DNA from: an uncultured archaeon
GTDB lineage: Archaea; Asgardarchaeota; Hermodarchaeia; Hermodarchaeales; Hermodarchaeaceae
Direction: 5' to 3'
Length of the DNA stretch: 64,000 nucleotides
Assembly (NCBI GenBank): GCA_964347045.1
Contig: CAYFXC010000009.1
Coordinates: 32,001 to 96,000, forward strand
Part shown: piece by piece, positions 27,769 through 58,429 of the stretch
Position numbering within the stretch: the stretch's first letter is position 1
Layout: each line of letters begins with the position of its first letter
Made by a program: the position numbers and the translations under genes
The notes under the pieces: generated by a model
Seen by the model: only the letters and a program-made list of their open reading frames with translations
Databases searched by the model: none
What the model was told of the DNA's origin: nothing

Positions 27769-28617
27769 ATGATACACTACGTCTATATCATCGACGCACG
27801 CGATGAAATTGTAGTCCAGAAAAAATTCTGGATTATCAATGTTAATGTCAAGGAAATGCAAGATTTTGCCAGCCGTGTAAAGGAAGCACAAGACACCATC
27901 ATTGAAGAAATCGGCCCAATCAAATATATCGGCAAACCTCTGGGACGAGGAATTGTCGTTCTCTGTGCTGAAGGTGTCGACGATGACGATACTCTTCGGG
28001 AAAAACTTGATCGCGTCCATTATGAATTCCGTCGTGTTATCAGTTATGAAGTTGAATACGAAGCCTTTATGGACAAAGTTGATGACTACGTCACAACAAC
28101 TCTTAAAGTCAGTATTATCGGTTATGGGGGTGTTGGGAAAACAACCCTTGTTACTCTTCTCAATGGCGGAGTCCCTCCAACAAGCTATGTTCCAACAATA
28201 GCTATTGACATTCAAAAAATCGAAGGTGCCCGTATCGGAACCTATGAAGTGAGTACTTGGGACTTTGCTGGGCAAGACCGATTCCGGAAACTTTGGGAAC
28301 TCTATTTTCGTGGTAGCCGAATTATCCTTCTAGTTACGGATTCAACATTAGAAAACGTGCTAAATAGCAAAGACATTATAGACTTGATTCGGCGAAAGGA
28401 TATCGCTGCTCAGTTACTTGCGATTGCGAATAAACAAGACCTTCCTGGCGCGTTATCTCCTCAACTAGTGCAGCGAATTTTAGGTATCAAAGCCTATGGC
28501 ATGGTTGCCATTGATCCAAATAACCGCCAGAAGGCATTGGATATTATCAAGGAAGCTTTGAAGCTAGCTGCTCCTAGAGAACCGGTTGCACCGAAACCTG
28601 AAATGGTTTTTGAGTAA
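27769..28617 (+). CDS. Longin-like domain fused to an Arf/Rab-type small GTPase
   Basis: N-terminal MIHYVYIIDARDEIVVQKKF (longin-like beta start); GYGGVGKTT, YVPTI, WDFAGQDRFRKLWELYFRGS, ANKQDLPGAL. Confidence 0.85.
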   Translation: MIHYVYIIDARDEIVVQKKFWIINVNVKEMQDFASRVKEAQDTIIEEIGPIKYIGKPLGRGIVVLCAEGVDDDDTLREKLDRVHYEFRRVISYEVEYEAFMDKVDDYVTTTLKVSIIGYGGVGKTTLVTLLNGGVPPTSYVPTIAIDIQKIEGARIGTYEVSTWDFAGQDRFRKLWELYFRGSRIILLVTDSTLENVLNSKDIIDLIRRKDIAAQLLAIANKQDLPGALSPQLVQRILGIKAYGMVAIDPNNRQKALDIIKEALKLAAPREPVAPKPEMVFE

Positions 28618-29814: not shown

Positions 29815-29940
29815 ATCGTAATTTAACCGAGTGGAGTCGGATAAAATGAAAAAAATGGAAAACACTGAATGTTGCATCAAAGAAAAGATGTATGCTGAAA
29901 TTTATCGATATCGACGAATATGTTAGGGGTTGGATTCAAG

Positions 29941-30663
29941 ATGTCTTGGTTTGGTAGAAGGAAAGACAAAGATGAGAAAACAAAAGAGGAAATCCGCAAA
30001 AAGATGGAACGGCTCGAAGAACAAATGCAGGATTTGCGTAGACGTTTAGAGAAAGAAGGAAGAACACCTCCTCGCGAAGAATATTCAACGGATTCTGATT
30101 CTCCTAAATCCTCCAAACGTTCTAAAGGTGTAAGGATTGAGTTTGATGAACAGGCATTTGGTGAGGAAATGGCTGAGTTTGGTCGGAATGTGGGTGCTGC
30201 CGGGAAAGAAATCGGGGAATACATAAAACTAGTTGTATCAGACGCTATGCGGGGAGCCAACCGGGCAATGCGGAGTGTTTTCATTGGTCCTGATGGAGCC
30301 GGTCTCAAAATAGATGAGAATGGTATTTCAATCGGTAAGTCTGCGGCAGAGGCGGTACAAAAAGTACCAGCTATGGATGCCGAACGATTACTGGCTCCTC
30401 TTGCGAGCGCTGAACGAATTGATATTCTCTATTTGCTTGCAGAAGAACCCCGTTACCATCAAGATCTCATGGAGTTATCAGGGTTAAAACCGGGAACTCT
30501 TCCTCATCATCTTAAACAATTAGAAGAAGCTGGATATGTAACACAAGAAAGAGTTCGTGGGAGATATCTCATCACTATCCCTGGTCGGATGGCACTAAAA
30601 CTAGCAGAGTATCTTCATAACCAAATGGTATCAGGTATCGGAAAAGATACTAACGAAGCATAA
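29941..30663 (+). CDS. ArsR-family winged-helix regulator with N-terminal coiled-coil/acidic extension
   Basis: C-terminal LAPLASAERIDILYLL...GTLPHHLKQLEEAGYV...GRYLIT. Confidence 0.8.
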   Translation: MSWFGRRKDKDEKTKEEIRKKMERLEEQMQDLRRRLEKEGRTPPREEYSTDSDSPKSSKRSKGVRIEFDEQAFGEEMAEFGRNVGAAGKEIGEYIKLVVSDAMRGANRAMRSVFIGPDGAGLKIDENGISIGKSAAEAVQKVPAMDAERLLAPLASAERIDILYLLAEEPRYHQDLMELSGLKPGTLPHHLKQLEEAGYVTQERVRGRYLITIPGRMALKLAEYLHNQMVSGIGKDTNEA

Positions 30664-30678
30664 CGAGTGTGATCTAGA

Positions 30679-31317
30679 ATGAGTTTTTGTTCACCATGTG
30701 GTTATCGAAAAAAGGAGCTAGTGCTTGGCGCTTTAGCAGGTAAGGTTACCCATTCTACGGATATTGCGCGATCAGAGAAAGCCTTGCTTATTGTCAATGA
30801 AGGCACACTTTATTTTCCAATTTTTTATCAGAATAGGGAAGTAGGTGGGGTTTTCATTGGATCCGGGCAGGCCATCATTGATGCGATTGCTGAAACCCGA
30901 CGGGGCGCCGTCGGGCAAAGTCATGATTTCCATTGGAATGGCAGTCTTCTCTTCTTTAGCGAAGACGGTGAATGGGCACCGCCTAGCACCACCCTCATCA
31001 AAGATAAGGAATTACAAAAATTCTACCTAGATTCTATTGAAGACGCCGATCGCCGGGCAAATGAAATTTTCACCAAGTTCTTAGAAAATAACCAAAACTG
31101 GTTTACTGATACATTTATCCAACGTCAGCATGGTTGGGTCGCAACTATCCTAGATACTCAGCATGGTAAATGTGGAGTTATTACGAGTGAAGATCGACTA
31201 ATCTTTAAGAAAGGCGATTTAAAAGTCGTGATTAGTGGAAGCAAATTAGTTCAAATTGAAGGTCGTAAGAAAATCTTTGTCGCTGGAAGAGCTGGAAAAA
31301 TTGTCCGCTTCGGATAA
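30679..31317 (+). CDS. Hypothetical protein, probably co-transcribed with the ArsR-type regulator
   Basis: 212-aa ORF 15 bp downstream of the regulator; beta-rich; no family recognised. Confidence 0.65.
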   Translation: MSFCSPCGYRKKELVLGALAGKVTHSTDIARSEKALLIVNEGTLYFPIFYQNREVGGVFIGSGQAIIDAIAETRRGAVGQSHDFHWNGSLLFFSEDGEWAPPSTTLIKDKELQKFYLDSIEDADRRANEIFTKFLENNQNWFTDTFIQRQHGWVATILDTQHGKCGVITSEDRLIFKKGDLKVVISGSKLVQIEGRKKIFVAGRAGKIVRFG

Positions 31318-31512: not shown

Positions 31513-34500
31513 ATGGCGTCATTGGATCATCATAGCTTAGTGAAAGCATATCTTACGCTTTTTCAAGTCGCTCGGAATGACCTTGAAGAAATATCGAAGC
31601 ATCTAACAAAAACAAAGGGGCAAGGTATTCAAGACATCTTGGAGCAAATTGCAGAATTACTCCAACGAATTGAATCCGCATCAGAGTCCCCACAACTTGA
31701 AATTGAGGTTGCTCGATCAATTGCTCGAGACTTTGAAACCGTTGCCCAACGGTGGCGTGAACTTGAGCAATACTTTGCCGATGAGATTCATTATGATGAT
31801 TATGTTTATCGTTCAGATGAAGAACGTGCTAAAGCCGCTGAGAATGCTTTGAGTATTATTCATGAGCAAGCACTAGAAGCGCTTGATGCGGCTGGAACAA
31901 TGTTTGGTATTGCTCGTGAATGGCGACGTGCAGCAAAATGCTTTAGTACAGTGGTTCAGGTCCGAAAGGCAGAGGATTCTCCTCTTGCTGCATTACCAGC
32001 AATTATACGCGAATACCGCTGTTACGAGCAGCTTGATGATTTTGAGAATGTTTTAATTATTGGTCGGGCTATTCAAAAGCTTCTGAGTGGTGTCAGTGAT
32101 GATCTCTCAGCTCAAGAAAGTGCAATGCTAATTGAAGCTGTTGAGTTCTTCCGAAAAACTGCAATGAGCGCAGTTTCAAACCGACAGAAAAATCCAGAAG
32201 TGAATATACCACTGGCCGCGATTTTCTTGTGGAATGAAGCCGAAGCTTTGTCCCTTGTTACCACATCGGATGACGATACGGCGCTAAATCGCTTCAAAGC
32301 ACTAGCAGAATTTTTCGAGCAGGTTGGAAAAGAAGAACTAGCTAAAGCCACGCCTTCAATTCAGCGGTTTGTTGCTAGCTATATGGAAGGTGCGTTTGCA
32401 TATTTACGAATAACTCGTGATATTGAAGGATTCACAGTTAATGAGGCTAGACGACTAAGTCTTAATCTCACACAATTTGCTGCTGATTTCATTCTAACCC
32501 TAATGGAGCGGCTTGGATACCAACGAGTAGCTGTTGTAGATGATTCTTCTAAAGCTGTAAAAGGGCTCATAGCCGTATTTGAAATGGTTAAACGTGGATA
32601 TGAGGGATCAAAGGCATTTCAAGAACTAGCAAATCAAGCGGGCTCCATTCTTGTACAGGCTCAACAGCATCAGGATCAATCACTCATCGATTTTGCAATG
32701 ATTTATCGGTGGCTCTGCGAAGGATCCGCACGTGGCTTGAACGTTATTTGTTTAAAACTAATAGCAGACCTCTACCGTATTGGCATAGTCAGTGATGTCC
32801 TAGATATTGGATCAAAGGAAGAACTCCGTAAAAAAATTCTTGATCTTTTTGTGATACCCGATCAGGATGAATTATTTGATTTATTAATTGATGCAGAAGT
32901 CGAATTTGATGATGTCGTTGATTTGTTCAAAAGTTTGGAACTTTACTGGGTTGCCGCTATTTGCAAACTTAATCAAGGACAACTTCGACAAAACCTAAGC
33001 TATCTTGAAGTAGAAACTGAACCACCTTCCTCACAAGAGCCTGTCGATGATGCTAAAGATGAACGCAAAGAACCCGATGCAATGCCTTTTTGGGGCGCAG
33101 CACCTTCTCGTGATTTCTCAAGTGCTGCAGAGTTGTTCTCCCTAGCATATCGACTCCAACGCGGTGTTGAACAAAGCAAAAAAGTCAAAGCGAGAGATAC
33201 CTGGATCCCCAATCGAGATCCAGATGAGATTCGGAGACGTGCGGCCTACAGCAGTTGGTTAGCGGGATTAGCAAATTTAGAAGAAGGAAATATCGAAGAT
33301 GGTGGACGAAACCTATTTCGTGCAAAAAATGCTTATGAGTTGCTTGACCGTCATCACGAAGCGATTTCCTGTTTAGAGGTTTGGCTGCAACAACTAGTTG
33401 CTACCATTAGTGAGGATGATGGAAGCGGAGTTCGACCAACGCAGGCTCGCCTTCAAGAAGTGCTAAACGTTTGCGATGAACTGGTTGGTTTATATTCGAT
33501 TCGACGAATGACGCAAGAAACAGTGGATGATATCCTCAAAATTGTAGGATTTCTCCAGAGTCATGTTGGTTTGGAGAATTGGACGCTAGCTGTATTTCTC
33601 CGCGCTTTAGATTATACACGTGAAGCCCTCCAAATTGCTCACAGATTAAAAATCCCAGATGCTACACTCGAAAAATTGCGATATCTCCGTGATGAGCTCA
33701 AAGAATTTCTGAATGGTGACTTTGCCATCGGGTTGTATCCTGATTTCGATACTGAAGCAATAATCTACTTTGAAGCAGAGACACCTGTGAAACTAGCCGT
33801 TCTCAATATTTCTGAAAAAGAAGCTGTTAATCTGAGTATTCGTCCATTAGGCATTCTTCCCCATATTTCCCCAAGTAGTACTCAACCATGGAAAGCCTCA
33901 AGGGATAAATCACAAGTTACGATGAAAAACTTCTATATCGGTTCAGATGACGATGCGTTTGAAATCAATGATAATATCTATTTTGAAAAACCTGCGGATG
34001 CATTTGGTCCAACTCGTCCTATCCCAGTAGTACTCACTAGTACAGCATCTCCAGATTTTGAACCAGTCTCGCCATCTGAGCAAATATCTGGAGAACAACC
34101 TTGGCTGGGAGTGATGTGGACAGGAGACTACAAAGGTATGCCACTCGGTACCCTCAAAGGAGCCACGGAAGAAATAGTCACCTCTGAGACCACCATTTCA
34201 ACTATTGATGATTTAATGCAAGCCGCGTTTTTCACTGTATTTACCAAGTCCGCACGTGAAGGGAATATCTTGCCTGGACAAGTATTCCCCGTAAGCTTTG
34301 GAATCTATCAAGCTGACACAAATAACCTATTAGCCATACAAACGCTATTTTTCAAAATTTCTAGCCGACCAAAAATCCTTAAGGCAGAAACTAATTGGGC
34401 AGATGAAATCGGAGACAAATGGGAAGAAAACTTTGGAATTACTTTCGAAGAAGGAGCTCATCTCCCCATTTATGTTCCACGATTTGCTCCTGAATATGAA

Positions 34501-36375
34501 ATCAAAGACTACATTAATCCACAAACCCTTACTCCCACAATTACGTTGGGCTCCGACGCCGTCGAACTCACAAAATACCTAAAACATGTGCCCTATCAGT
34601 TCAACCTTCGCTATAAAGGAAAACGAGAATTACAAACCGGAAATAATTACTTGGTAGAAAGTCAGATCTCAATTGAGATGCCAGTTCCTACTCGAATCGG
34701 TGGCGAATATGAATTTCTTCGAATCAAGACTCCTCCCCGCATTATGACTGCTGAAGAGCTCGCAATGCCTCGACTTCGAAACGGAGTAAACTTTCAAGAG
34801 TTATTCTATGGCACTGTTTTCATTGGTGATGCAAAATACGATGGAGAATACTTCATATATCGCCTTTGGATTTGCTTTGAACCTGGTGAAATGAGTCCCG
34901 CACCAGGAGCAAACTATCGGCAAGGTTGGACAAACCATCGAATAGACCTCTTTCTTGATCCCAAAACTTGGGACCCTCGTCTTATCATAACCGACTACTA
35001 TGTCGAATTTGAGGATGGTCATGCTGAATGGGTGGAAGCGCTTTTTTCATTCAAAGCTGCTAGTTCAACTTTATTTGGTATTCGCCGACTCACAGCAGAT
35101 TTGCATCGTGAGGCAAACCTTGCCGCCTACCCTGATGCTTTTGAATCTGAAATTCGAAACTCTCTTTCATCACTTGGCGTAGACAATGAAACTCCGCTCA
35201 AAATAACAGGATTTGCTCTTGGACAACGATTAGGCTCTATTGAACTCATTCGGGCTAGCTGGGCACGAAACAAATACGATGGTCCAGTGATTTTCAAACC
35301 TCCACGAGCTCATCTCTTTCGAGATTATTGGAGTCAACGCTATGAACATGGACTCTATCGTGATGACTGGCAAGGGGAAAACCATACGAATCAATATGAA
35401 ATGAAAAGTAATGACCGTAGTGGAGGGCAATCGAAGTATATTCGCGGATTCCGAGAAAAAGTCTTTCCTCATGAAATTGGTATTATGGCCCGAGAAAAAG
35501 ATCGCTGTGACCTCATCATCAAACCCCCAAGTGATGGTGCCTTTAGAATCATCCGTAATCTTGTTAATCCTCGAAAAATCGAACTTTGGACCCGTCCACA
35601 CGTTAGCTTTAGTCGTAGATTCAACTTCATTGCTAAGTATTTTGGTCGACCACCAAAGATCCACACGGCTAGCCTCTACTTCTATAGTACACGTCGTGAA
35701 CTCAATCCCTATTTTAAAACCCGTGTCCGAGGTAAAGACCAATGGGTCCAATACCCTGAACCTCGCTACTGGGATGGTAAACAATGGATTCCAACTCCTC
35801 AAGACTTCCTTCCTACTAAGCATCCTGAAAACCTTGCTCATGGCATCAATACCTGGCTGGAAGCTGACGCATATTGGGTATTTCGCTATGTCTGGTATTG
35901 GCCCCTCGAGCTAACCTTTCCTCTCCCTCACGACGATTGGGAGCGTGCAGACATCTGGGTGAATGCTCGAACAGGAAAAATCGAATGGATTACATCTGAT
36001 TATCACTGGCGAGAACTTTGGTATCAAAACGCTGTCAAAGTCAGTGGTGTCAATCCCATCATCGATTTCCTCTATAACTGGAACACACCAGAACCCCTCA
36101 CGGTCAAAGATGGAGCCCCAATCCACCAATCCATCACCCCTTATTTTGAAGAAGGAAAAACAATAGGCGAATTTGCAGATCAACTTCCTTGGATGTTTGC
36201 CCGCTTCAAACACAGCACAGAACACATGCACAAACTCCATGCATCTTTCTGGGGACGCAATAAAGTCAAAATCGTCTACGGCTCTATTGGAGTCTTAATA
36301 ACTCTCCTCATACTTTTCCTCTTCCCACCAACTCGTGACTTTCTTCTGAGTCTACTTGGATCTCTCCTACCCTAG
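31513..36375 (+). CDS. Giant 1620-aa hypothetical protein: helical-repeat N-half, beta-rich C-half, C-terminal membrane anchor
   Basis: Uninterrupted ORF; amphipathic TPR/SNAP-like helices to about aa 740; Trp/Tyr-rich duplicated module; terminal TM IVYGSIGVLITLLILFLF; no signal peptide. Confidence 0.85.
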   Translation: MASLDHHSLVKAYLTLFQVARNDLEEISKHLTKTKGQGIQDILEQIAELLQRIESASESPQLEIEVARSIARDFETVAQRWRELEQYFADEIHYDDYVYRSDEERAKAAENALSIIHEQALEALDAAGTMFGIAREWRRAAKCFSTVVQVRKAEDSPLAALPAIIREYRCYEQLDDFENVLIIGRAIQKLLSGVSDDLSAQESAMLIEAVEFFRKTAMSAVSNRQKNPEVNIPLAAIFLWNEAEALSLVTTSDDDTALNRFKALAEFFEQVGKEELAKATPSIQRFVASYMEGAFAYLRITRDIEGFTVNEARRLSLNLTQFAADFILTLMERLGYQRVAVVDDSSKAVKGLIAVFEMVKRGYEGSKAFQELANQAGSILVQAQQHQDQSLIDFAMIYRWLCEGSARGLNVICLKLIADLYRIGIVSDVLDIGSKEELRKKILDLFVIPDQDELFDLLIDAEVEFDDVVDLFKSLELYWVAAICKLNQGQLRQNLSYLEVETEPPSSQEPVDDAKDERKEPDAMPFWGAAPSRDFSSAAELFSLAYRLQRGVEQSKKVKARDTWIPNRDPDEIRRRAAYSSWLAGLANLEEGNIEDGGRNLFRAKNAYELLDRHHEAISCLEVWLQQLVATISEDDGSGVRPTQARLQEVLNVCDELVGLYSIRRMTQETVDDILKIVGFLQSHVGLENWTLAVFLRALDYTREALQIAHRLKIPDATLEKLRYLRDELKEFLNGDFAIGLYPDFDTEAIIYFEAETPVKLAVLNISEKEAVNLSIRPLGILPHISPSSTQPWKASRDKSQVTMKNFYIGSDDDAFEINDNIYFEKPADAFGPTRPIPVVLTSTASPDFEPVSPSEQISGEQPWLGVMWTGDYKGMPLGTLKGATEEIVTSETTISTIDDLMQAAFFTVFTKSAREGNILPGQVFPVSFGIYQADTNNLLAIQTLFFKISSRPKILKAETNWADEIGDKWEENFGITFEEGAHLPIYVPRFAPEYEIKDYINPQTLTPTITLGSDAVELTKYLKHVPYQFNLRYKGKRELQTGNNYLVESQISIEMPVPTRIGGEYEFLRIKTPPRIMTAEELAMPRLRNGVNFQELFYGTVFIGDAKYDGEYFIYRLWICFEPGEMSPAPGANYRQGWTNHRIDLFLDPKTWDPRLIITDYYVEFEDGHAEWVEALFSFKAASSTLFGIRRLTADLHREANLAAYPDAFESEIRNSLSSLGVDNETPLKITGFALGQRLGSIELIRASWARNKYDGPVIFKPPRAHLFRDYWSQRYEHGLYRDDWQGENHTNQYEMKSNDRSGGQSKYIRGFREKVFPHEIGIMAREKDRCDLIIKPPSDGAFRIIRNLVNPRKIELWTRPHVSFSRRFNFIAKYFGRPPKIHTASLYFYSTRRELNPYFKTRVRGKDQWVQYPEPRYWDGKQWIPTPQDFLPTKHPENLAHGINTWLEADAYWVFRYVWYWPLELTFPLPHDDWERADIWVNARTGKIEWITSDYHWRELWYQNAVKVSGVNPIIDFLYNWNTPEPLTVKDGAPIHQSITPYFEEGKTIGEFADQLPWMFARFKHSTEHMHKLHASFWGRNKVKIVYGSIGVLITLLILFLFPPTRDFLLSLLGSLLP

Positions 36376-49076: not shown

Positions 49077-50098
49077 GTACATTGACAACACAAGAACCAT
49101 TGATTGAAGTGCGAAACCTGAAAAAATACTTCCCCGTTCGTCGTGGATTGGTTGCCCAGCTCGTTAGCCGTGAACAGATTTGGGTTAAAGCGGTTGATGA
49201 TATTTCATTTGATATTTTCAAGAATGAAGTGTTTGTACTTGCTGGTGAATCTGGATGCGGTAAAACCACTACTGGACGAGTCCTTCTCAATCTAGCTCCC
49301 GCAACTGAAGGGAGTATTACCTATGCTGGCACGGATCTTGCCGCAATTACTAAACAAGAAATGAAAGCGCTTCGACCAAAACTGCAGATCATTTTCCAAG
49401 ACCCCTATGAAAGTTTGAACCCTCGACTCAGTATTCATGATAGCATTGGGGAAGCACTCCAAGTCAATCGTCTTACTGAAAGTCGCGAAGAACTTCTACA
49501 ACGTATCAAAATGGCAATGGAAGATGTCCGCCTTATTCCTCCTGAAGATTTCATCTATCGGTACCCACATATGCTCAGCGGTGGCCAACGGCAACGCGTC
49601 GTTATTGCTCGTGCCATCGTCACTCAACCCGAATTCATCGTCGCCGATGAACCGGTTTCTATGCTCGACGCATCCATTCGTGCTGAGATTCTCCACCTCC
49701 TCAAAGACTTGATTAAAAAATATGATCTTACCTATCTTTACATCACGCACGATCTAGCTTCTGCTCGATATATTGGTGACCGGATTGGCATCATGTATTT
49801 GGGCAAAATCGTTGAGTATGGTCCAGTTGGTCGTGTTATCGACAACCCCAAGCATCAGTATACTGCAATACTCGTCTCTGCTGTTCCCATTCCTGATCCA
49901 ACACTTACTCATACGCGACGGGCTCCGATCGGTGAAGTTCCTTCACCCATTAATCCTCCATCTGGTTGTCGGTTCCATACACGATGTCCGAAGGCAGATG
50001 AGAAATGTCGTCTTGAAGAACCTCCTTTCAAAGAGGTCGAGAAAGAACATTTTACGGCCTGTTGGCACTGGTTTGATCCCAAGCAATGGGAAGAATGA
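49067..50098 (+). CDS. dppF: Peptide ABC ATPase DppF
   Basis: GESGCGKTT, YPHMLSGGQRQR, ADEPVSMLD, GCRFHTRC. Confidence 0.93.
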   Translation: MEVGTLTTQEPLIEVRNLKKYFPVRRGLVAQLVSREQIWVKAVDDISFDIFKNEVFVLAGESGCGKTTTGRVLLNLAPATEGSITYAGTDLAAITKQEMKALRPKLQIIFQDPYESLNPRLSIHDSIGEALQVNRLTESREELLQRIKMAMEDVRLIPPEDFIYRYPHMLSGGQRQRVVIARAIVTQPEFIVADEPVSMLDASIRAEILHLLKDLIKKYDLTYLYITHDLASARYIGDRIGIMYLGKIVEYGPVGRVIDNPKHQYTAILVSAVPIPDPTLTHTRRAPIGEVPSPINPPSGCRFHTRCPKADEKCRLEEPPFKEVEKEHFTACWHWFDPKQWEE

Positions 50099-50164
50099 CA
50101 TCATTGACAAATACGTGGAATCCACTTCTTCAAGGCACAAAGGGTCATTATATGAAGTCTACAG

Positions 50165-50920
50165 TTACTTTGCAAACTTAGAAAAAAGTTGCTGAATGAT
50201 CTTCGGGTTTTGAGGAGTGGATTGCTTCAGATATTTATCTTGAGAGAACATTTCAAAGAACTTTCCCATTTCACGGAGTTTTCCAATTATATCCAAGATA
50301 GTCTGTTTCTCGATGTCCATTTGTTTGATAATCACTTCAATATTATCAAATGAAGAATTCTTGAAAAGAGTTGCCGCCTCCATGGAGCTAGGGGTCTTTT
50401 TTGTTGCTAGGCTGATGAACGTATCTGCTAGGTTTGAATAAATTTGTTTAATGGATTCAAGAGTGCTTGTGTATTGTCGACCTTGAAGTAGTTGATAGGT
50501 GATTAGTCTTTGTAAATCTTCTAAAACATGGCGTTTATCATCAGGATATTCAACAATAATTTCCGGAGGAAGTGTAATCGGATCAATTAGGCGAAGGGCA
50601 TACATGTTAGCTTCTGCTTCCTCGATTCCTTCAAACATTAGCGCATTTCGCATTTCCACACGTGCAAAGTGCCAAACAAGATTTGTGTTGATTGTTTTTG
50701 GATCCGGAATGATAATAAAATGCAAACTTATTCCTAGACCATACGGGCTTTTAGGTCCGCTGAGTAGGAATGGGCTTCCTGTATCTATAGGTAAATTCGC
50801 AACAGCTGAATCTACTGTTTCTGGAAGTTTTCGAGGAACTGTTGTTTTGAACAATTTGAGAAGAGGGACAAAAAGTGTCGAAGATGGAGGTTTGCGTTTT
50901 CGCCGGTAAAAAAATGGCAT
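50165..50920 (-). CDS. Hypothetical protein
   Basis: 251-aa ORF following the HTH gene; no family recognised. Confidence 0.65.
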   Translation of the reverse strand: MPFFYRRKRKPPSSTLFVPLLKLFKTTVPRKLPETVDSAVANLPIDTGSPFLLSGPKSPYGLGISLHFIIIPDPKTINTNLVWHFARVEMRNALMFEGIEEAEANMYALRLIDPITLPPEIIVEYPDDKRHVLEDLQRLITYQLLQGRQYTSTLESIKQIYSNLADTFISLATKKTPSSMEAATLFKNSSFDNIEVIIKQMDIEKQTILDIIGKLREMGKFFEMFSQDKYLKQSTPQNPKIIQQLFSKFAK

Positions 50921-50968
50921 TTACAATCACTACCCGACGAAGGAAATGATTAGTTCGAATACATAATG

Positions 50969-51223
50969 CTAACGGTTCATGCGGCGTTCAACGTGTAGCA
51001 TAAAGAGAGTTTGGCGTAAATCTGTAAGATTGGGAACGCGGGCAACAACACCTTCTGCAACCAGCCGTTTCAAAGCGTATCGAACAGTGCGGGGGGCAAG
51101 GTTTGTGTTTTTTACAATTTCTTTACTCGTCATCGGGCCGTTATTCTCGATGACCCGGATAATTTTGGAGGCACTAGGCGGTTCCTTGTGACTTCTAAAC
51201 CATTTCACATTGCCACCCACCAA
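50969..51223 (-). CDS. Small winged-helix DNA-binding protein (archaeal MarR-like)
   Basis: PPSASKI...GPMTSKEI...LAPRTVRYALKRL...G.V...DLRQTLF. Confidence 0.85.
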   Translation of the reverse strand: MVGGNVKWFRSHKEPPSASKIIRVIENNGPMTSKEIVKNTNLAPRTVRYALKRLVAEGVVARVPNLTDLRQTLFMLHVERRMNR

Positions 51224-51411
51224 GTGCTATTCGTTTGGTTTTTAAAAGCGTTTCGAATCCGGAAACGGCAAAAGCCGAAGAAATCTTCGTAAATTCATGA
51301 TTTCCTTTTAAAGCAACCGAATTTGGTGCAAAAAAGACACATTAACGTATAAAAGGGGCAAGAGCTTCACTATCCGGCACCCTACTGCTAAGTAGGACAA
51401 CGGATGGAAAA

Positions 51412-54400
51412 ATGAAAATGAAACAGATAGTGTTTCTTAGAAAGCGTTCAATGACATCTCTAGCGTTTTCAGCGATTCTAATAGCATCAATGTTTATCGG
51501 AATTACTGCTTTACCTGTATCAAATCTTTTGCAGAACGTGTTTAATCCATTGACAACTACGCCGATGGATCAATACCGCCCGTTCTTCGAAGGAGCCGAT
51601 CAACCCAATGACCCTGGGATGAGCAAACTAGCGAACTTTGAGAAAAACCTACATGACTATCTACGAACTGGTCGTATATCAGATGGTATCGTACAAACCA
51701 AAGATGGCATGAGCATTTTGCTCGGTGCTGGTTATGAAATCGATTTAGCCGCACTCAGTGGGCACATGAAAATCCGTCATGTCCTCGATATGGGAATCGG
51801 ATTTATGGTGTTGGGTGACGTTTCATCACCAAGGGACCTTTATCTCATCAATTCACTCGACTATACGGGTCTCATCATGGCTGATGAATACCTAGAAACA
51901 CCCTCAAAGCCTAATTTTGATCCTGGGCCATCCCCCGATAACTTCTTCGTTCGGGATATTATTGAAGCCGATATGGCCAATGCTGCTGGCTATACTGGCT
52001 CAGGTGCAGTAATTGGTGTCGTCGATACTGGTATAGACCATACTCTTACTGATTTGGCAACAGCTTATCACACGAATAGCTCTGGCTATCCCACTGCCTT
52101 TGATCCTGGTGGAATGGGTATTGCCATTACTGATTGGTCAGGTTCACCAGTAAGTGGATATCTCCTTACTGGCGGGTATGATTTTGCAATGCATTGGCCC
52201 TTCTACCCTTATGGAGGACTTGTCCGCTACTCGAACAGCACCTATGATGTGGTAGCTGATAACCTCTTTATTGGAGTCGGCGCAAACGAAATTCCAAGTC
52301 AATCGGGCATCTACAAAGTTGGCGTCGTCTTGATGTCTTCAGATCCTGGAGGACCCAGGACCCGACAATTCGTCATCTTCATGTTGACGGATCCGAACAC
52401 TGCAGGTGTTTATGACACTATGTATATTGACTGGGAAACTTCGTATGCGGTTTCAGCCGATTATAACCATTGGGCTACTCCTGCGCTCCCCGCGGATTGG
52501 GACTTCACAAACAACATCGTCAATGGCAAATACGACTTTAATCCAGCCACGGCGGATGCGCCATTCCTGATGGCGTATGATGGCGACGGCGATGGCTACA
52601 ATGACTTCGGTCTTGGTCTCTTAGCGAACACCTATGACCTTTTTGGATTTATCACAGGTGAAATCGTTCAAGGAATCGATCCCTCAGGAGATGGCTTTGC
52701 CTTCTTCTACGATGACGGAGCCCACGGTACAAGTGTTGCTGGTGCCGCTGCAGGTCGAGGCATTCAACCCATGGACGTTTATGGCAATGGAACGAACTAT
52801 TATTTGACCGGCATTGCCCCAGACGCTGAACTCATGGGCCTGAAAAGGTTCACCTTTGCCAGCGAATTCGAAAGCTGGGCCTGGGGTTCAGGCTGGCGAC
52901 CTGTTGCCAAGGATCTACCGACAGGTACCTATATGGATTGGACTCACAGCATGTATCTGCCTGGGTGGGACGATTCTAACCAAGCCGATATCCTCACCAA
53001 CTCATGGGGTTATATCCTGTGGGAATTTGGTGATGATGACTACTTCTACAGTGTTGATTGGTCTTCCTTTGCTATGGACTACTTCAGCACTGGAGCTTTG
53101 GGATATCCGTACCATAATGCGACAGGCAGTTATCTCAGCAACCCCATGTTTCCTGATGGTGGCATTGCTGATTCACCACTGTTTGTCTTCTCATCTGGTA
53201 ACGCTGGTCCAGGCTACTCAACCGCTGGCAGCCCAGTAAGTGCTTCGGCTCTAACTGTCGGTGCTAGTACAACCCATGCCTACGCTGAGCAAATCTACAA
53301 TCCTGATCTTGAATTCGGTCCTCAGGGATATGACCAATTGGCTTTCTTCTCCAGTGGTGGTCCCACACCAAGTGCATTGCCCAAGCCGGATGTGGTGGCT
53401 CCTGGTCTCGGAGGTTTTGAAATTACACCACTTTGGCGGGCTCAAACTTTGGGAACACAGCCTTTCCGAACCTTCAGTGGAACCAGTATGTCTGCACCAA
53501 TCGTCGCTGGTGTCGCGGCATTGGTTGTTGAGGCATTGGCATTACCAATTGTCGGTGACTATCCGATACCGGCGAATCCGTATGGTTTTGATGGTGGACT
53601 GATTAAGACAATTATCAAGTCTTCGACTGATGACCTTCATCATGCGGTGCTTCGTCAGGGATCTGGGCGTGTGAACGCTTGGAAGGCTGTTGCATTGGCT
53701 ATTGGTAATGAAACTCTTACTCCCGCGGGAACAGACTACTTGATGACATTGATGAGCAACAACACGTTCATCAACTACGCAATTGGCTACCAATTGGACT
53801 ATTCTGTCGTGGCTAACTGGAAGGTTAATTCGACCGCTGCAATATTGCGTGAAGGAAATACACCGTACAATGACGTAACAACCTTCCCTGGAGCCTGGTT
53901 CTGGATCATGATGAGTGGCTATGATGCGCCCTATACACCCAATGCGGCTTATTATCATCCGGGCTCCCATGGTTTGTGGGCTCCCAACGTTAGTATGATG
54001 GATGCAGGCTTCATGGTTCCTGCCCTACATGCTGGTGACACGAAGGATGTTGGCTTTGTCGCAGGTACTGCAGGTAATCCGATCAGTGGTACTGTTGATG
54101 CCGATTGGTATACGCTCACTGGTGAGGCAGAAGCGTCCTTCTTCTCAACGTCTCCCGCTGTAACCTATCCGCTCTTCGGTGACTATCCAGGGATTAACAA
54201 CTTCGATGATGCCTTCATGGCTGATTTCCTGGCTGCTGACTATGCAGTGATCACTCTGACCTATGATACCAGTACGTTTGAGGAACTGTGGGACTTCACC
54301 AATGAATACTTCTATGGTGGAGACACGAACTACGTCTTCCTCTTCGACTGGAATGACACCAGTATGGACGGCATCCTTGATTATTATACAAGTGAGATTC

Positions 54401-56418
54401 GACGAATTGATTCCGATCAAAGCAGTAGCCCACTTCTCCAATTGCATGTCGGGAATCCTGGCGCACAATGGATGGGCAACAGGAATGCAACCATTTACTG
54501 GCGAGATCGAGGAATCGAAACCTTCATCTATCGGCAACTTCTGGTCAACGTCAATATTCGTCTCTATGACCGCGTGGATTGGGACTGGTTCACCTTCACC
54601 CAAAGCGGCGTTGATCCATACATGTGGACATCGACCATAAGCGTACCAGCTCAACAAGCACCTGGCTTCTACGTCGGCTGGATAACCCTTGAACAAGGGA
54701 CTGCCAAAGAATACTTCCCAGTCTTACTCCGTGTGGATGGCGAAGTCATCCCCGGTGATAGTTTATCCTGGGGTGGCTCCGATGGACATCCCTATGACAA
54801 CGGAGCAATCACGGGTGGTGTTCGATGGGACGGAGATGGCACCTATATCGGTGGTGACTGGCGTCACTACTTTGTTGACATCAAAGATCCAACCGATGAC
54901 ACGGGTTGGTACATGGTCAACGTTACTTGGATGGATCCAGATACCATTCTGGACGTCTTCATCAAAGCCGCTGACTTTGGCACCGACTATTGGGTTGGCT
55001 ACTGGGGTGGTGATACCATGACCGCCACAGAATACCTCAGAGATGAGGGTCTAGGCAGATGGGATTCGACTCCCACATGGGATCGACAAAACGTCCTCCT
55101 TGCCGACTATTCTCTAGCGACATCATGGTATCTTGGAAGAGAGGCTCCGATCCTCATTTCGATCCACGTTGCCCAACGTGGTGCCATGTATGCAGTCGAG
55201 AACTTCACCGTCACAGTAACACCTACCAATTTCACAACCACTCCCTACTCCGCTGCCCTCGGAGCGTTAGGTGTGCCTATTGATCCGGTGCCGTTCCCCA
55301 ATGGGAACATCACACTCTATGGGACGAACACACCAATTACCGATGACAGTATTTGGTCAGGTGAGCATATCACCTTCAATGGAACATGGGAGCCCTACGT
55401 CTTCCCAGGTCTTCCAGTGCCCCAACGGCAAGCTGATATGCAAGTATTACTCGGTGCCCTCTACGACATCTCAGGCAGCTTTACAGCCGCTAACGCTACA
55501 CCTGATAGTCCACCACCAAATGACTATGAACTCGAAGTTCCTGATATTTCACCCGGCATGTTAATCGTAGTAGACTTTTCCGCCGGACCTCCTATTGGTG
55601 GAACGAGTCTTGGTCCACACGACCTCGACATCTTCCTCTACTATGGTGAGGCTCAAGTGGCGTCTAGCACGAATGCTGGTAGTGATGAATACATCGAATA
55701 CACGGCGCAATTTGGTGGAACCTATACGCTAGTAGTTGACTATTGGGGTATTGATGATCCGCCCTACTACATCTGGGGTGGTTGGGATTCCTTACCCTGG
55801 CACTTCACCCTGAAGGCTTCCCAGATCATCAGCAATCCCACACCAGGTGGCACAGCGCTTTATGATACCCATACACTTGGTATCAATCTCGCTGGGTTCG
55901 ATGTAACTCTCAAACTCGTAACTGGGACAAGCCTTGACTTTGGTTCTTGGCTCACATACAGTGTAACTAATCTTTCAGTCACAAACTACTTTTCACCCAC
56001 CCTTAGCCTTCTCAATCCAGTAGCTGGTGATGTTAGAGGACCAGACCCATTCTGGTTCAATTGGACATCCAGTGATCAGAACTCGGATGAGACGCTTGCG
56101 TTCCAGGTTGAAGTAAGTAATGACAATGGTCTCAATTGGACCGTCGTCGTGCCTGCAACAACTGAAATGGGTGCGATATGGGATCCCAATGGCTTCTATG
56201 GAGTAAATGCCACCGATCAGATGGTTTGGCGCGTCACTGTAACGGATGGCTTTTTTGAGGTTACAGAAACCTCAGGCGTGTTTGAAGTGCTACCACTAGA
56301 AGTTCCACCGCCACCGCCACCGTATGAGACATATGTCGTCATTGCTGTGATAGTCATTGTCGTCATCATCTTATTGGCAACTTGTTTCCTGAAACGTCAG
56401 CAAACTGCAAAAACCTAA
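51412..56418 (+). CDS. Membrane-anchored S8 subtilase, pyrolysin-like
   Basis: Signal peptide; catalytic D (VVDTG), H (HGTSVAG), oxyanion N (SSGN), S (SGTSMSAP); large D-H insert; PPC-like domain (DLDIFLY); poly-Pro linker plus C-terminal TM. Confidence 0.92.
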   Translation: MKMKQIVFLRKRSMTSLAFSAILIASMFIGITALPVSNLLQNVFNPLTTTPMDQYRPFFEGADQPNDPGMSKLANFEKNLHDYLRTGRISDGIVQTKDGMSILLGAGYEIDLAALSGHMKIRHVLDMGIGFMVLGDVSSPRDLYLINSLDYTGLIMADEYLETPSKPNFDPGPSPDNFFVRDIIEADMANAAGYTGSGAVIGVVDTGIDHTLTDLATAYHTNSSGYPTAFDPGGMGIAITDWSGSPVSGYLLTGGYDFAMHWPFYPYGGLVRYSNSTYDVVADNLFIGVGANEIPSQSGIYKVGVVLMSSDPGGPRTRQFVIFMLTDPNTAGVYDTMYIDWETSYAVSADYNHWATPALPADWDFTNNIVNGKYDFNPATADAPFLMAYDGDGDGYNDFGLGLLANTYDLFGFITGEIVQGIDPSGDGFAFFYDDGAHGTSVAGAAAGRGIQPMDVYGNGTNYYLTGIAPDAELMGLKRFTFASEFESWAWGSGWRPVAKDLPTGTYMDWTHSMYLPGWDDSNQADILTNSWGYILWEFGDDDYFYSVDWSSFAMDYFSTGALGYPYHNATGSYLSNPMFPDGGIADSPLFVFSSGNAGPGYSTAGSPVSASALTVGASTTHAYAEQIYNPDLEFGPQGYDQLAFFSSGGPTPSALPKPDVVAPGLGGFEITPLWRAQTLGTQPFRTFSGTSMSAPIVAGVAALVVEALALPIVGDYPIPANPYGFDGGLIKTIIKSSTDDLHHAVLRQGSGRVNAWKAVALAIGNETLTPAGTDYLMTLMSNNTFINYAIGYQLDYSVVANWKVNSTAAILREGNTPYNDVTTFPGAWFWIMMSGYDAPYTPNAAYYHPGSHGLWAPNVSMMDAGFMVPALHAGDTKDVGFVAGTAGNPISGTVDADWYTLTGEAEASFFSTSPAVTYPLFGDYPGINNFDDAFMADFLAADYAVITLTYDTSTFEELWDFTNEYFYGGDTNYVFLFDWNDTSMDGILDYYTSEIRRIDSDQSSSPLLQLHVGNPGAQWMGNRNATIYWRDRGIETFIYRQLLVNVNIRLYDRVDWDWFTFTQSGVDPYMWTSTISVPAQQAPGFYVGWITLEQGTAKEYFPVLLRVDGEVIPGDSLSWGGSDGHPYDNGAITGGVRWDGDGTYIGGDWRHYFVDIKDPTDDTGWYMVNVTWMDPDTILDVFIKAADFGTDYWVGYWGGDTMTATEYLRDEGLGRWDSTPTWDRQNVLLADYSLATSWYLGREAPILISIHVAQRGAMYAVENFTVTVTPTNFTTTPYSAALGALGVPIDPVPFPNGNITLYGTNTPITDDSIWSGEHITFNGTWEPYVFPGLPVPQRQADMQVLLGALYDISGSFTAANATPDSPPPNDYELEVPDISPGMLIVVDFSAGPPIGGTSLGPHDLDIFLYYGEAQVASSTNAGSDEYIEYTAQFGGTYTLVVDYWGIDDPPYYIWGGWDSLPWHFTLKASQIISNPTPGGTALYDTHTLGINLAGFDVTLKLVTGTSLDFGSWLTYSVTNLSVTNYFSPTLSLLNPVAGDVRGPDPFWFNWTSSDQNSDETLAFQVEVSNDNGLNWTVVVPATTEMGAIWDPNGFYGVNATDQMVWRVTVTDGFFEVTETSGVFEVLPLEVPPPPPPYETYVVIAVIVIVVIILLATCFLKRQQTAKT

Positions 56419-56422
56419 AATT

Positions 56423-56464
56423 GGGGGGTAACCCCCCCTTCCCTTTCTTTTTTCAGTTTTTTTT
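56423..56464 (+). terminator. GC hairpin plus T-tract after the S8 gene
   Basis: GGGGGG-TAA-CCCCCCC followed by tttcttttttcagtttttttt. Confidence 0.7.
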
Positions 56465-56544
56465 GGTCAATGGATTCAAAGAATTTCAATGCTAGTTGAG
56501 TTTTGGTTCGGAAGGCATAAAAACGTACAAAGAATCTTTTGTGA

Positions 56545-57126
56545 GTGAGGTGGTTCTGGTTGGCGCGCCGAATACAACGCCTTGGATTATTTCTTGGGTC
56601 GCAGCTTGTATCTGGCCTGTTGACCTTCTTTGCGATGTATGGTGTGGCAAATGTCGGATTTGCCCTTCAGGTGATACTTTTCGAGGTGAGTCCTCAGTAT
56701 GCGTGGATTCTAATCGGTCTGCTGTGTTACTCGTGGGTTCTCACTTTGTTGATTCTCCCTATTCAAGCGGGGGTGCAGATTTGGAGCCTTCTACGATTAG
56801 AATCGACACCACTTCTCATAACATATTATTTTCAGTATGATGCAACCAGGAATCTCCCTCATCGTTTTCTTGACCCGGTTCAAAGTCGAATTGGGTTAAC
56901 CACCGTTCTCATTCTCTTGATCGGGGGATTAGTCGCATGGCCCATTTTCTCTTTTTATGGGACATTCTTGCTTGTTGTCCGCTTTGGACCACTTTTATTA
57001 ACTCTAGATTTTGTTGTACTGTTTATTCAAGGATTAGCTGTGGGGGCTTCTGCCATTTTTGTCACTTACTTTGTCCTTGCTTCATTAGGTGTACTCATTC
57101 TTCAATGGCGACGACGCGGGCGATAA
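56545..57126 (+). CDS. Hypothetical membrane protein (about 4 TM)
   Basis: Hydrophobic helices; basic termini. Confidence 0.65.
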   Translation: MRWFWLARRIQRLGLFLGSQLVSGLLTFFAMYGVANVGFALQVILFEVSPQYAWILIGLLCYSWVLTLLILPIQAGVQIWSLLRLESTPLLITYYFQYDATRNLPHRFLDPVQSRIGLTTVLILLIGGLVAWPIFSFYGTFLLVVRFGPLLLTLDFVVLFIQGLAVGASAIFVTYFVLASLGVLILQWRRRGR

Positions 57127-57142
57127 AACAAAGGTAGAATGA

Positions 57143-58429
57143 TTATGCGAGTTTATCGGTAAGTAGTTTTCCTAGTTTTCGAATGCCTTTATCGAGAACT
57201 TCAGGAGGTGAATACGAATAGCTGATTCGCATCGTATTCAAAGCCCGTTCGACAGGAACTAATTCGTCCTGCTCTGGAAGATAACTTAGGCCCATTAAGG
57301 GGTAAAAGGCTACACCAGGTACATAGATGATGTCATTGGGGAGCGCAACCTGTTCCAAGAACTGTTTTGCGTCAAAATCTGGGTTCTTGCTTTCCCACCA
57401 TATGAAAAAGCCTCCTGTGGGATCCGTACGGGAACCCTCTGGGAAGGTTTCATCAATCGCGGTTCGCATGGTATCCGCGCGTTGTTTATAGATTTCTAAA
57501 GCCTTGGGAAGAACTTCATCAATATGTTTTCGATAATAAATATCGAGCATCCGTTGCACAATCGTGGGGCTGCACAAATCTAAGAATCCTTTATCTTTGT
57601 TGATTTGTTCCTGTAGTTTTGGAGGGAACACGCTATATCCAATTCGGAGGACAGCTGCTTCCTTGCTACTAGTGCGAAGATATGCTACGTATTTGTTCTC
57701 AGTGTCTAAGGCTTTGATTGGTTTATTTCGGGGTTCACGAAACTGGATTTCGCGGTAGGCTCCGTCTTCCACAATGATAGTATGGTGTTCCATGGCAAGG
57801 TTGAATAAAGCTTCTCGTCGTTTCTGAGGAATGGTGGTTCCCTTAGGGTTATCCGAGTCTGGAACCAAATAAATCATTTCGGGTTTTTTTCCGAGCTCTT
57901 TCTTAGTGCAATTAATCGCATTCTCAAAGTATTCTGGAATAGCCCCTTGAAGGTCCGTTGGAACAGTAATAATTTGAGCCCCGAGTTTTACTGCAGGTAC
58001 AAGAAAACCGAGATATGCTGGACTTGTGGTTAGTATAATGTCTCCTTGGTCGATGCAGGTATCAATAATGGCATATAGTGCCTGTTGAGATCCTGTTGTG
58101 ATAATGATATCGTCTTCGGGCTTGTCATCCGATAGAGTTATACCATCTTTTTCGATAAGCCGTTGTGCCAAGGTTTTGCGAAAAAAGGACTTTCCGCTGG
58201 TGGGTCCATAGTTGAAATCATCGATTACTCGCTCATTATGGCCCACTTTAATTTCTGAGAGCTGTTCATTTCCAAGATCGATTAAAATCTGAGCCCACGT
58301 CTCTATAGGGAGTGCACCGGGTTTCCCACCCCCAAAATAGTAGGGTACGTTGTATTTGAGTAACCGGCGAATCTCAGATTCTGGGATGAATGCTGTCCAA
58401 GCTGCAAAATCATATGGCTCTTTACTCAT
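57143..58429 (-). CDS. PLP-dependent aminotransferase class I/II (LysN/Aro8-like)
   Basis: SEIRRLL, FGGGKP, YGPTSG, TTGSQQAL, NPKG, EDGAY, TSSK..LRIG, PTGGFFIW, MRISYS. Confidence 0.9.
   Translation of the reverse strand: MSKEPYDFAAWTAFIPESEIRRLLKYNVPYYFGGGKPGALPIETWAQILIDLGNEQLSEIKVGHNERVIDDFNYGPTSGKSFFRKTLAQRLIEKDGITLSDDKPEDDIIITTGSQQALYAIIDTCIDQGDIILTTSPAYLGFLVPAVKLGAQIITVPTDLQGAIPEYFENAINCTKKELGKKPEMIYLVPDSDNPKGTTIPQKRREALFNLAMEHHTIIVEDGAYREIQFREPRNKPIKALDTENKYVAYLRTSSKEAAVLRIGYSVFPPKLQEQINKDKGFLDLCSPTIVQRMLDIYYRKHIDEVLPKALEIYKQRADTMRTAIDETFPEGSRTDPTGGFFIWWESKNPDFDAKQFLEQVALPNDIIYVPGVAFYPLMGLSYLPEQDELVPVERALNTMRISYSYSPPEVLDKGIRKLGKLLTDKLA

Follow-up and report, generated by a model that had tools for sequence, protein, structure and literature searches.

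A giant, putatively tail-anchored protein of one Asgard archaeal family combines a predicted TPR-like solenoid with a conserved membrane-proximal module

A 64,000-nucleotide stretch of contig CAYFXC010000009.1 from an uncultured archaeon of the Asgard family Hermodarchaeaceae (the window, always meant at its full length) contains a gene for a protein of 1620 amino acids (aa), here called P0001, which is a real and strongly conserved protein of one Asgard family. We established the architecture, the conservation and the family relationships of P0001. The explanation we prefer, and to which we give an even chance, is that it would be a membrane-bound scaffold or tether which brings soluble partners to the membrane; its topology, ligand binding and scaffold role are what we infer from these results. 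The features of the protein, all on the plus strand, are given below with their positions in nucleotides (nt) of the window.

31513-36375, plus strand: whole gene, protein P0001, 1620 aa (open reading frame list, translation and orthologues)
31513..33717, plus strand, aa 1-735: predicted TPR-like alpha-solenoid of 25 helices (AlphaFold2 model)
33736..34368, plus strand, aa ~742-952: probable immunoglobulin (Ig)-like beta-sandwich with a long variable insert at aa ~780-865
34408..35274, plus strand, aa ~966-1254: beta-rich domain containing block 1 (core aa 1113-1163, nt 34849-35001)
35299..35607, plus strand, aa ~1263-1365: FRDYWS segment, with LFRDYWSQR at aa 1268-1276 (hidden Markov model and alignment)
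35830..36222, plus strand, aa ~1440-1570: DWER domain, that is block 2 (core aa 1453-1504, nt 35869-36024; profile searches)
36265..36333, plus strand, aa ~1585-1607: predicted single C-terminal transmembrane helix, followed by a 13-residue tail (hydropathy scan)

The open reading frame (ORF) was intact, with 1620 codons and an ATG start, and all peptides quoted in an earlier sequence-only reading of the window were found in it at the expected places; nearly every feature which that reading described was borne out. The stop-to-stop frame was merely 4 codons longer than the ORF, which leaves no space upstream in which a signal peptide could have been missed. After the preceding gene come a T-rich stretch, the AT-rich box TTTACTATATG some 40 nt ahead of the ATG and, 9 nt ahead of it, a GGAG; these elements would fit a gene with its own promoter. 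The gene is single-copy, and its syntenic position did not change between the orthologous loci examined.

A word-indexed search of 5.8 billion proteins retrieved 21 relatives of P0001 at 51-82% identity, nearly all of them 1617-1632 aa long, with record labels of Promethearchaeota and Thorarchaeota and, for one fragment, Hermodarchaeota. Phyletic range was surveyed in 400 genomes of the window's own phylum (Asgard). The whole C-terminal half was matched in 13 genomes besides the window's own, all in its GTDB family, and matches were found in 12 of the 14 genomes of its genus and one of the four of the sister genus. Twelve of the 13 matches lay in open frames of 1622-1691 aa and the remaining one, of 942 aa, ended at a contig edge. 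In five other Asgard families only a ~90-residue DWER stretch was matched, within ORFs of 860-1000 aa or, for one fragment, shorter. Among the genomes searched, full-length orthologues were confined to the window's own GTDB family.

Mean column identity over 17 aligned orthologues was 71%. The percentage of invariant columns, computed for each segment from the orthologue alignment, climbed toward the C-terminus, that is toward the membrane end of the protein, from 13-22% in the solenoid through 34-39% at aa 953-1180 and 44-45% at aa 1255-1439 to 56% at aa 1440-1545 (the DWER region), the highest value in the protein; the transmembrane helix and tail had 8%.

AlphaFold2, run with the orthologue alignment, modelled aa 1-735 as all-helical with 25 helices, a mean predicted local distance difference test score (pLDDT) of 84.7 and a predicted template modelling score of 0.78, with disordered loops at about aa 504-526, 556-560 and 635-639. 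The best Foldseek matches of this model were long TPR proteins (Ski3, Ctr9, Naa15, IFT-A and LGN, E ~5e-5), and the region is confidently predicted to be a TPR-like solenoid, much as the sequence-only reading had proposed from about 740 aa of helical repeats. For aa 355-735 the top structural matches were gamma-SNAP and Sec17. The Pfam SNAP model (PF14938) matched six of the 17 orthologues below threshold, the best at 22.8 bits against a gathering score of 25, at aa 117-211 and thus outside the structurally matched stretch; P0001 was not assigned to the SNAP family, and a specific SNAP relationship is not established. Sequence searches with the solenoid found no homologues beyond the orthologues of P0001.

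The model of aa 740-1575 was poor overall (mean pLDDT 46.3) and only aa ~1029-1250, the stretch that contains block 1, reached 70-85; even so it bore out the beta-rich middle that had been read from the sequence. A Foldseek search of the C-terminal half model against the PDB gave no match at E<=0.001, and all template modelling scores in an ESM Atlas fold search were at or below 0.24.

The same earlier reading had proposed that blocks 1 and 2 are related and that the first is degenerate. BLASTP of the two halves gave E 0.31 and hhalign with orthologue-only profiles a probability of 2.4%, while block 1 against a 61-sequence profile of the block 2 family reached a probability of 45% (E 2.2e-4, 44 columns). 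All three comparisons fell in the same register, YxIYRLW..HRIDLFLD..LIITDYY against YWVFRYV..WERADIWVN..EWITSDYH, and block 1 lacks the D-W-E-R residues, with WTNHR in their place. Since the three comparisons share one register a degenerate duplication is plausible, with block 1 as a possible degenerate copy of the DWER core; support rose from the first comparison to the third, so that the proposed relationship was confirmed in part but not demonstrated.

The DWER domain connected P0001 to other proteins. When a profile of aa 740-1575 was searched against 1.84 billion cluster representatives, 50 proteins were matched at E<1e-10, all of them only over aa ~1440-1540. A second search with a 61-sequence DWER alignment gave 220 further matches with E values down to 5e-45, most of them proteins of about 600 aa labelled Bathyarchaeota and all annotated as hypothetical. 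Nearly all DWER relatives were without a Pfam domain (two carried a zinc-ribbon family only), NCBIfam had no match for either P0001 or these relatives, and sequence-profile searches of the PDB with four alignments found nothing significant, the best hit being a hairpin of EgtD at E 0.24. On these profile searches the DWER domain belongs to a large undescribed family that has no match in Pfam, NCBIfam or the PDB. D1475, E1477, R1478, W1482, A1485, D1496, H1498 and R1500 were invariant across the 61-sequence family alignment; H1473, D1475, W1476 and E1477 were invariant in the 17 orthologues of P0001 (51-82% identity), and across the family H1473 was frequent but not universal.

Most of the relatives are multi-pass membrane proteins with an FRDYWS motif 200-350 residues N-terminal of the DWER domain. 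A hidden Markov model of the FRDYWS region built from 120 relatives was searched against all ORFs of the genome and matched P0001 alone (E 0.0012), with similarity extending over about 100 residues, for example GDLYDLSSGR.IG..LVDP.DL..KYRP against CDLIIKPPSDGAFRIIRNLVNPRKIELWTRP. P0001 has the DWER domain and the upstream FRDYWS segment of this family in the same order and shares the LPW.Y/F tail motif after the domain. The DWER domains match at E 1e-26 to 5e-45 and agree in their invariant residues. P0001 lacks the family's transmembrane bundle. No hydrophobic segment was found in P0001 between aa 1277 and 1440, whereas 109 of 110 relatives have at least one transmembrane helix there. Because both segments are similar and the helices are missing, aa ~1263-1570 of P0001 correspond to the non-membrane parts of the family joined without the bundle. 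A separately encoded bundle partner was not found when a full-length family model was searched against all ORFs of the genome, which again matched P0001 only. The multi-pass relatives for their part have 2-6 transmembrane helices between the segments and usually four more before them, and are without the solenoid, the Ig-like region, the second copy or the C-terminal anchor of P0001.

Complex prediction with the FRDYWS segment and the DWER domain as separate chains gave a score of 0.52 against 0.00 for the best of three controls. Of 80 solved complexes 58 attained that mark, as did 2 of 110 mismatched pairs; only 7 of the 80, together with both mismatches, attained it with a score no higher than 0.60. 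At least 43% of contacts agreed between runs and partner pLDDT was at least 44. The prediction weakly supports the two segments forming one module.

The form of the family differs with its source, at about 600 aa mostly in Bathyarchaeota and 860-1000 aa in the other Asgard families, with distant members of about 500 aa in Candidatus Latescibacterota, Candidatus Eisenbacteria and Eukaryota sp. GEM-RC1. The eukaryotic member (507 aa, L156:5001-6524) is encoded by an intronless gene on a 2.36-Mb contig with clearly eukaryotic flanks (PA28, GPI mannosyltransferase 2, MIF4G and a PFOR-flavodoxin fusion); a literature search on GEM-RC1 returned nothing relevant.

The orientation of P0001 in the membrane was considered from the hydropathy of the protein and of its relatives. 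The only 19-residue windows with a Kyte-Doolittle mean above 1.5 lay at aa 1583-1616, with a peak at 1585-1607, and the hydrophobic character of this C-terminal segment was kept in orthologues; no hydrophobic N-terminal segment was found in the scan. P0001 thus shows a single transmembrane segment less than about 40 residues from the C-terminus and no signal peptide, the pattern of a tail-anchored protein and the one that the sequence-only reading had described. R, K and K stand just N-terminal of the helix, and R and D follow it. In the 110 relatives with both motifs a crude hydropathy count placed four transmembrane helices between FRDYWS and DWER in 57, the commonest number, and two or six in 14; the number was even in 72 and odd in 38. 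Before FRDYWS there were most often four helices or none; 15 relatives have the motif only 4-33 residues into the sequence, with no helix ahead of it. From these counts and the N-terminal FRDYWS motifs, both segments are most simply placed on the cytoplasmic side next to the membrane, which agrees with the orientation of a tail-anchored P0001. The cytoplasm-facing, C-terminally anchored protein that had been proposed is supported by the missing signal peptide, the K/R residues ahead of the helix and the likely topology of the relatives. The genome encodes an ArsA/Get3-family ATPase, and so do all control genomes.

What the DWER domain might resemble was approached through families with a similar motif. 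With Vps62 proteins the domain shares an H-x-(G)DWE-type motif after an aromatic strand, and a likeness to Vps62/DUF946 and to the NLP/NPP1 proteins had been pointed out in the sequence-only reading. The Vps62 model (PF06101, gathering score 22.1 bits) matched none of the 61 DWER family members and none of 17 orthologue C-terminal halves, and gave no match at E<=10 in a six-frame search of the genome. Elsewhere PF06101 was found in one of 401 Pseudomonadota genomes, covering model positions 8-211 only (its N-terminal half), and was absent from five NLP-bearing bacterial genomes. The NPP1 model (PF05630) had no match in P0001 and matched two of the 61 members at E>=0.11; the NLP heptapeptide GHRHDWE is not kept, P0001 having PLPHDDWE and only D-W-E-R being invariant family-wide, and P0001 lacks the signal peptide of the secreted NLPs. 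Membership of either Pfam family was not supported, and what survived of the proposed likeness was a resemblance to NLPs at the level of the motif and, weakly, of the fold.

An NLP profile was made from 100 bacterial NLP sequences that had been collected by a genome scan for GHRHDWE codons. Against it, the 61-sequence DWER alignment gave an hhalign probability of 14.6% over 24 columns lying exactly at the motif, a match that exceeded all 20 column-shuffled controls. The consensus patterns agree over about 50 residues, the NLP consensus reading Y.lYFEKDQ...GHRHDWEhvvVWv....v.yvs.S.HG and the DWER family consensus Rf.y.wp.Elt...ph.DwER.EvWvdA.tG..eWiVsDYH. Neighbours in ESM feature space included clusters with a minority of Vps62-bearing members (20% in one of them) and one cluster with 68% NPP1 members; as their scores were 0.78-0.92, these clusters are leads only. 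A literature search for Vps62 together with NPP1 returned nothing relevant. The evidence points to the DWER domain being a distant NLP-like beta-sandwich, a relationship that is not established. Known NLPs (PF05630; PDB 3GNZ, 5NO9) differ from P0001 in being small, secreted and active at the outer leaflet of plant membranes, whereas P0001 is without a signal peptide and would face the cytoplasm. A further resemblance was to PepSY (PF03413), domains of which are normally extracytoplasmic. The DWER-family hairpin v.vWvDA.TG.v matches the C-terminal hairpin of PepSY, with weak matches in 12 of the 61 members (best E 0.0016) and an hhalign probability of 19% over 23 columns, but the match is limited to this one hairpin, and PepSY has nothing that corresponds to the invariant DWER, DYH and R residues. 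As a separate observation, two Streptomyces loci (L008:6447-7402 and L022:69-970) had a pair of same-strand GHRHDWE motifs separated by about 900 bp, suggesting tandem NLP genes.

Taken as a scaffold or tether, P0001 would be fixed in the membrane by its single C-terminal helix, tail-anchored with a bulk of about 1580 residues toward the cytoplasm. The composite FRDYWS-DWER module would sit directly before the helix and, since it forms the cytoplasmic part of multi-pass proteins elsewhere, probably has its place of action on the inner face of the membrane. The invariant Asp, Glu, Arg, Asp, His and Arg of the DWER core have an arrangement that recalls the cation and sugar-headgroup pocket of NLPs, and by this analogy the core may bind something small and polar, a lipid head group or a metal ion being the likeliest ligands. 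The degenerate second copy and the Ig-like sandwich would serve as spacers, and the 735-residue TPR-like solenoid at the far end would offer a large protein-binding surface. Several points weigh against this picture. The topology rests on hydropathy and the positive-inside rule, and the helix counts in the relatives are crude, as their odd numbers indicate. The fold of the DWER domain was not predictable (pLDDT ~30 in the C-terminal half model and 45-57 in the complex model), the links to NLP, Vps62 and PepSY are all short and statistically weak, and the invariant charged residues could equally well form a catalytic site or a binding pocket. The solenoid, with no homologues outside the orthologues, gives no hint of its partners.

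The ambiguity of the charged residues leads to the strongest competing explanation, in which the module is an enzyme, regulated or targeted by the solenoid, that would work at the inner leaflet as a metal-dependent hydrolase or transferase with a membrane lipid or an envelope precursor as its substrate. D1475, E1477, R1478, D1496, H1498 and R1500 are kept across archaea, bacteria and one eukaryote, the module is the most conserved part of P0001, and its fusion to a transmembrane bundle in the relatives is a feature of many lipid-modifying enzymes. The Candidatus Latescibacterota member (L155:6001-7518) is encoded 29 bp downstream of, and in the same direction as, the gene for a 1223-aa LptD-like protein, a single case that may hint at a role in envelope lipids. 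Set against this, no enzyme family was matched in Pfam, NCBIfam or the PDB, no conserved gene neighbours were found for the Bathyarchaeota relatives, and the nearest resemblance, to NLPs, is to a binding protein rather than an enzyme. We regard an enzyme as unlikely, though still deserving serious consideration.

A bolder form of the scaffold explanation would make the module an ancient and so far unrecognised branch of the NLP/Vps62 fold, cytoplasmic and able to sense or bind lipid head groups at the inner leaflet, which Bathyarchaeota, Asgard archaea, some bacteria and at least one eukaryote would have in common. In the family of P0001 it would have been freed from the transmembrane bundle and joined to a giant solenoid as a lipid-specific tether, prefiguring the peripheral tethering factors of eukaryotes. 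This is a long shot. If it were true that the module is a cytoplasmic cousin of NLPs, a secreted-toxin fold would be extended to an internal housekeeping role.

A eukaryote-like trafficking factor of Vps62 or SNAP type, working as a tether or coat adaptor with a neighbouring Arf-like GTPase, has to be judged with the genes upstream of P0001. In loci down to 51% identity these keep the order Lhr-type helicase, thioredoxin, metallo-beta-lactamase (MBL) hydrolase, Arf-like GTPase, AP-endonuclease-2-fold protein, 247-aa ArsR-type helix-turn-helix protein, 212-aa family-less protein and P0001, while the downstream genes vary. Three of the upstream genes are located in the window as follows.

27769-28617, plus strand: Arf-like GTPase, 282 aa, with an Arf/Roc/Ras-type domain at aa 110-242 (Pfam Arf, E 2.4e-19)
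29920-30663, plus strand: 247-aa protein, its N-terminus charged and coiled-coil-like, its C-terminus an ArsR-type winged helix (HTH_5, E 7e-12)
30679-31317, plus strand: P0023, 212 aa, directly upstream of P0001 and on the same strand, with no Pfam, NCBIfam or PADLOC match

An Arf-family GTPase gene was found 3 kb upstream of P0001 in every orthologous locus examined; in the window its product has an N-terminal extension of about 110 aa without a Pfam match, which the sequence-only reading had taken to be longin-like. This constant neighbour, the gamma-SNAP and Sec17 structural matches, the six sub-threshold SNAP matches and the ESM features leading to Vps62-bearing clusters speak for a trafficking factor. 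PF06101, however, finds nothing, and the SNAP matches are below the cut-off and in another stretch than the structural one. The upstream gene order is a lineage-wide synteny and no proof of a functional link; as a long block kept in one lineage, it says little on function. The module is moreover commonest in Bathyarchaeota, where no trafficking system is known, and we consider a trafficking factor improbable. For the 247-aa protein, PADLOC matches to Csa3 and CARF models covered the winged helix only. P0023 was rejected as an exclusive partner of P0001, since its family, present in 16 of 18 genomes of the Asgard family f1, also occurs in families that lack the giant protein, namely f26 (three of three genomes, ~42% identity) and f31 (most of the 80-odd sampled, ~25% identity).

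That P0001 might reach the cell surface by some unrecognised export route and be held there by its C-terminal helix, as an adhesin or an S-layer-like protein, is suggested by its giant size, Ig-like beta-sandwich and C-terminal anchor, which are common among archaeal surface proteins, and by the normal action of NLP-like folds outside cells. It is made highly improbable by the lack of a signal peptide and of upstream room for one, by a TPR-type solenoid typical of cytoplasmic proteins, by the positive charges ahead of the helix and by relatives that put the module on the cytoplasmic side. An effector that damages membranes in the manner of NLPs, such as a suicide or defence module with the solenoid as its trigger, would suit the motif-level and weak fold-level resemblance to NLP cytolysins and the TPR sensors that are commonly coupled to effectors in defence systems, but P0001 has no PADLOC match, no NTPase domain and no NPP1 membership and is kept in single copy at a fixed syntenic position under strong purifying conservation across its family, so that we give this idea very little credence.

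Apart from these loci, the window holds a second giant ORF of 1668 aa (51412-56418, plus strand) in which a subtilase domain (E 7e-31) is spread over aa 196-709 and a PPC domain is weakly matched. The GC content around it is 0.49-0.50 against ~0.42, no other part of the window being GC-rich, and no Rfam match was found at 50000-58000.

Full-length P0001 is confined to one uncultured family, which is a practical limit to its study. The family defined by its membrane-proximal module is sizeable, with at least 220 clusters turning up in one search; it extends over all three domains of life, and no member has been named or given a structure or function. Should the module prove not to be NLP-like, P0001 would remain well suited to structural and lipid-binding studies. 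Of all known organisms the Asgard archaea are most closely related to eukaryotes; as a giant, strongly conserved, anchored protein that appears to face the cytoplasm with a putative protein-binding solenoid, P0001 is a candidate organiser of their membrane surface.

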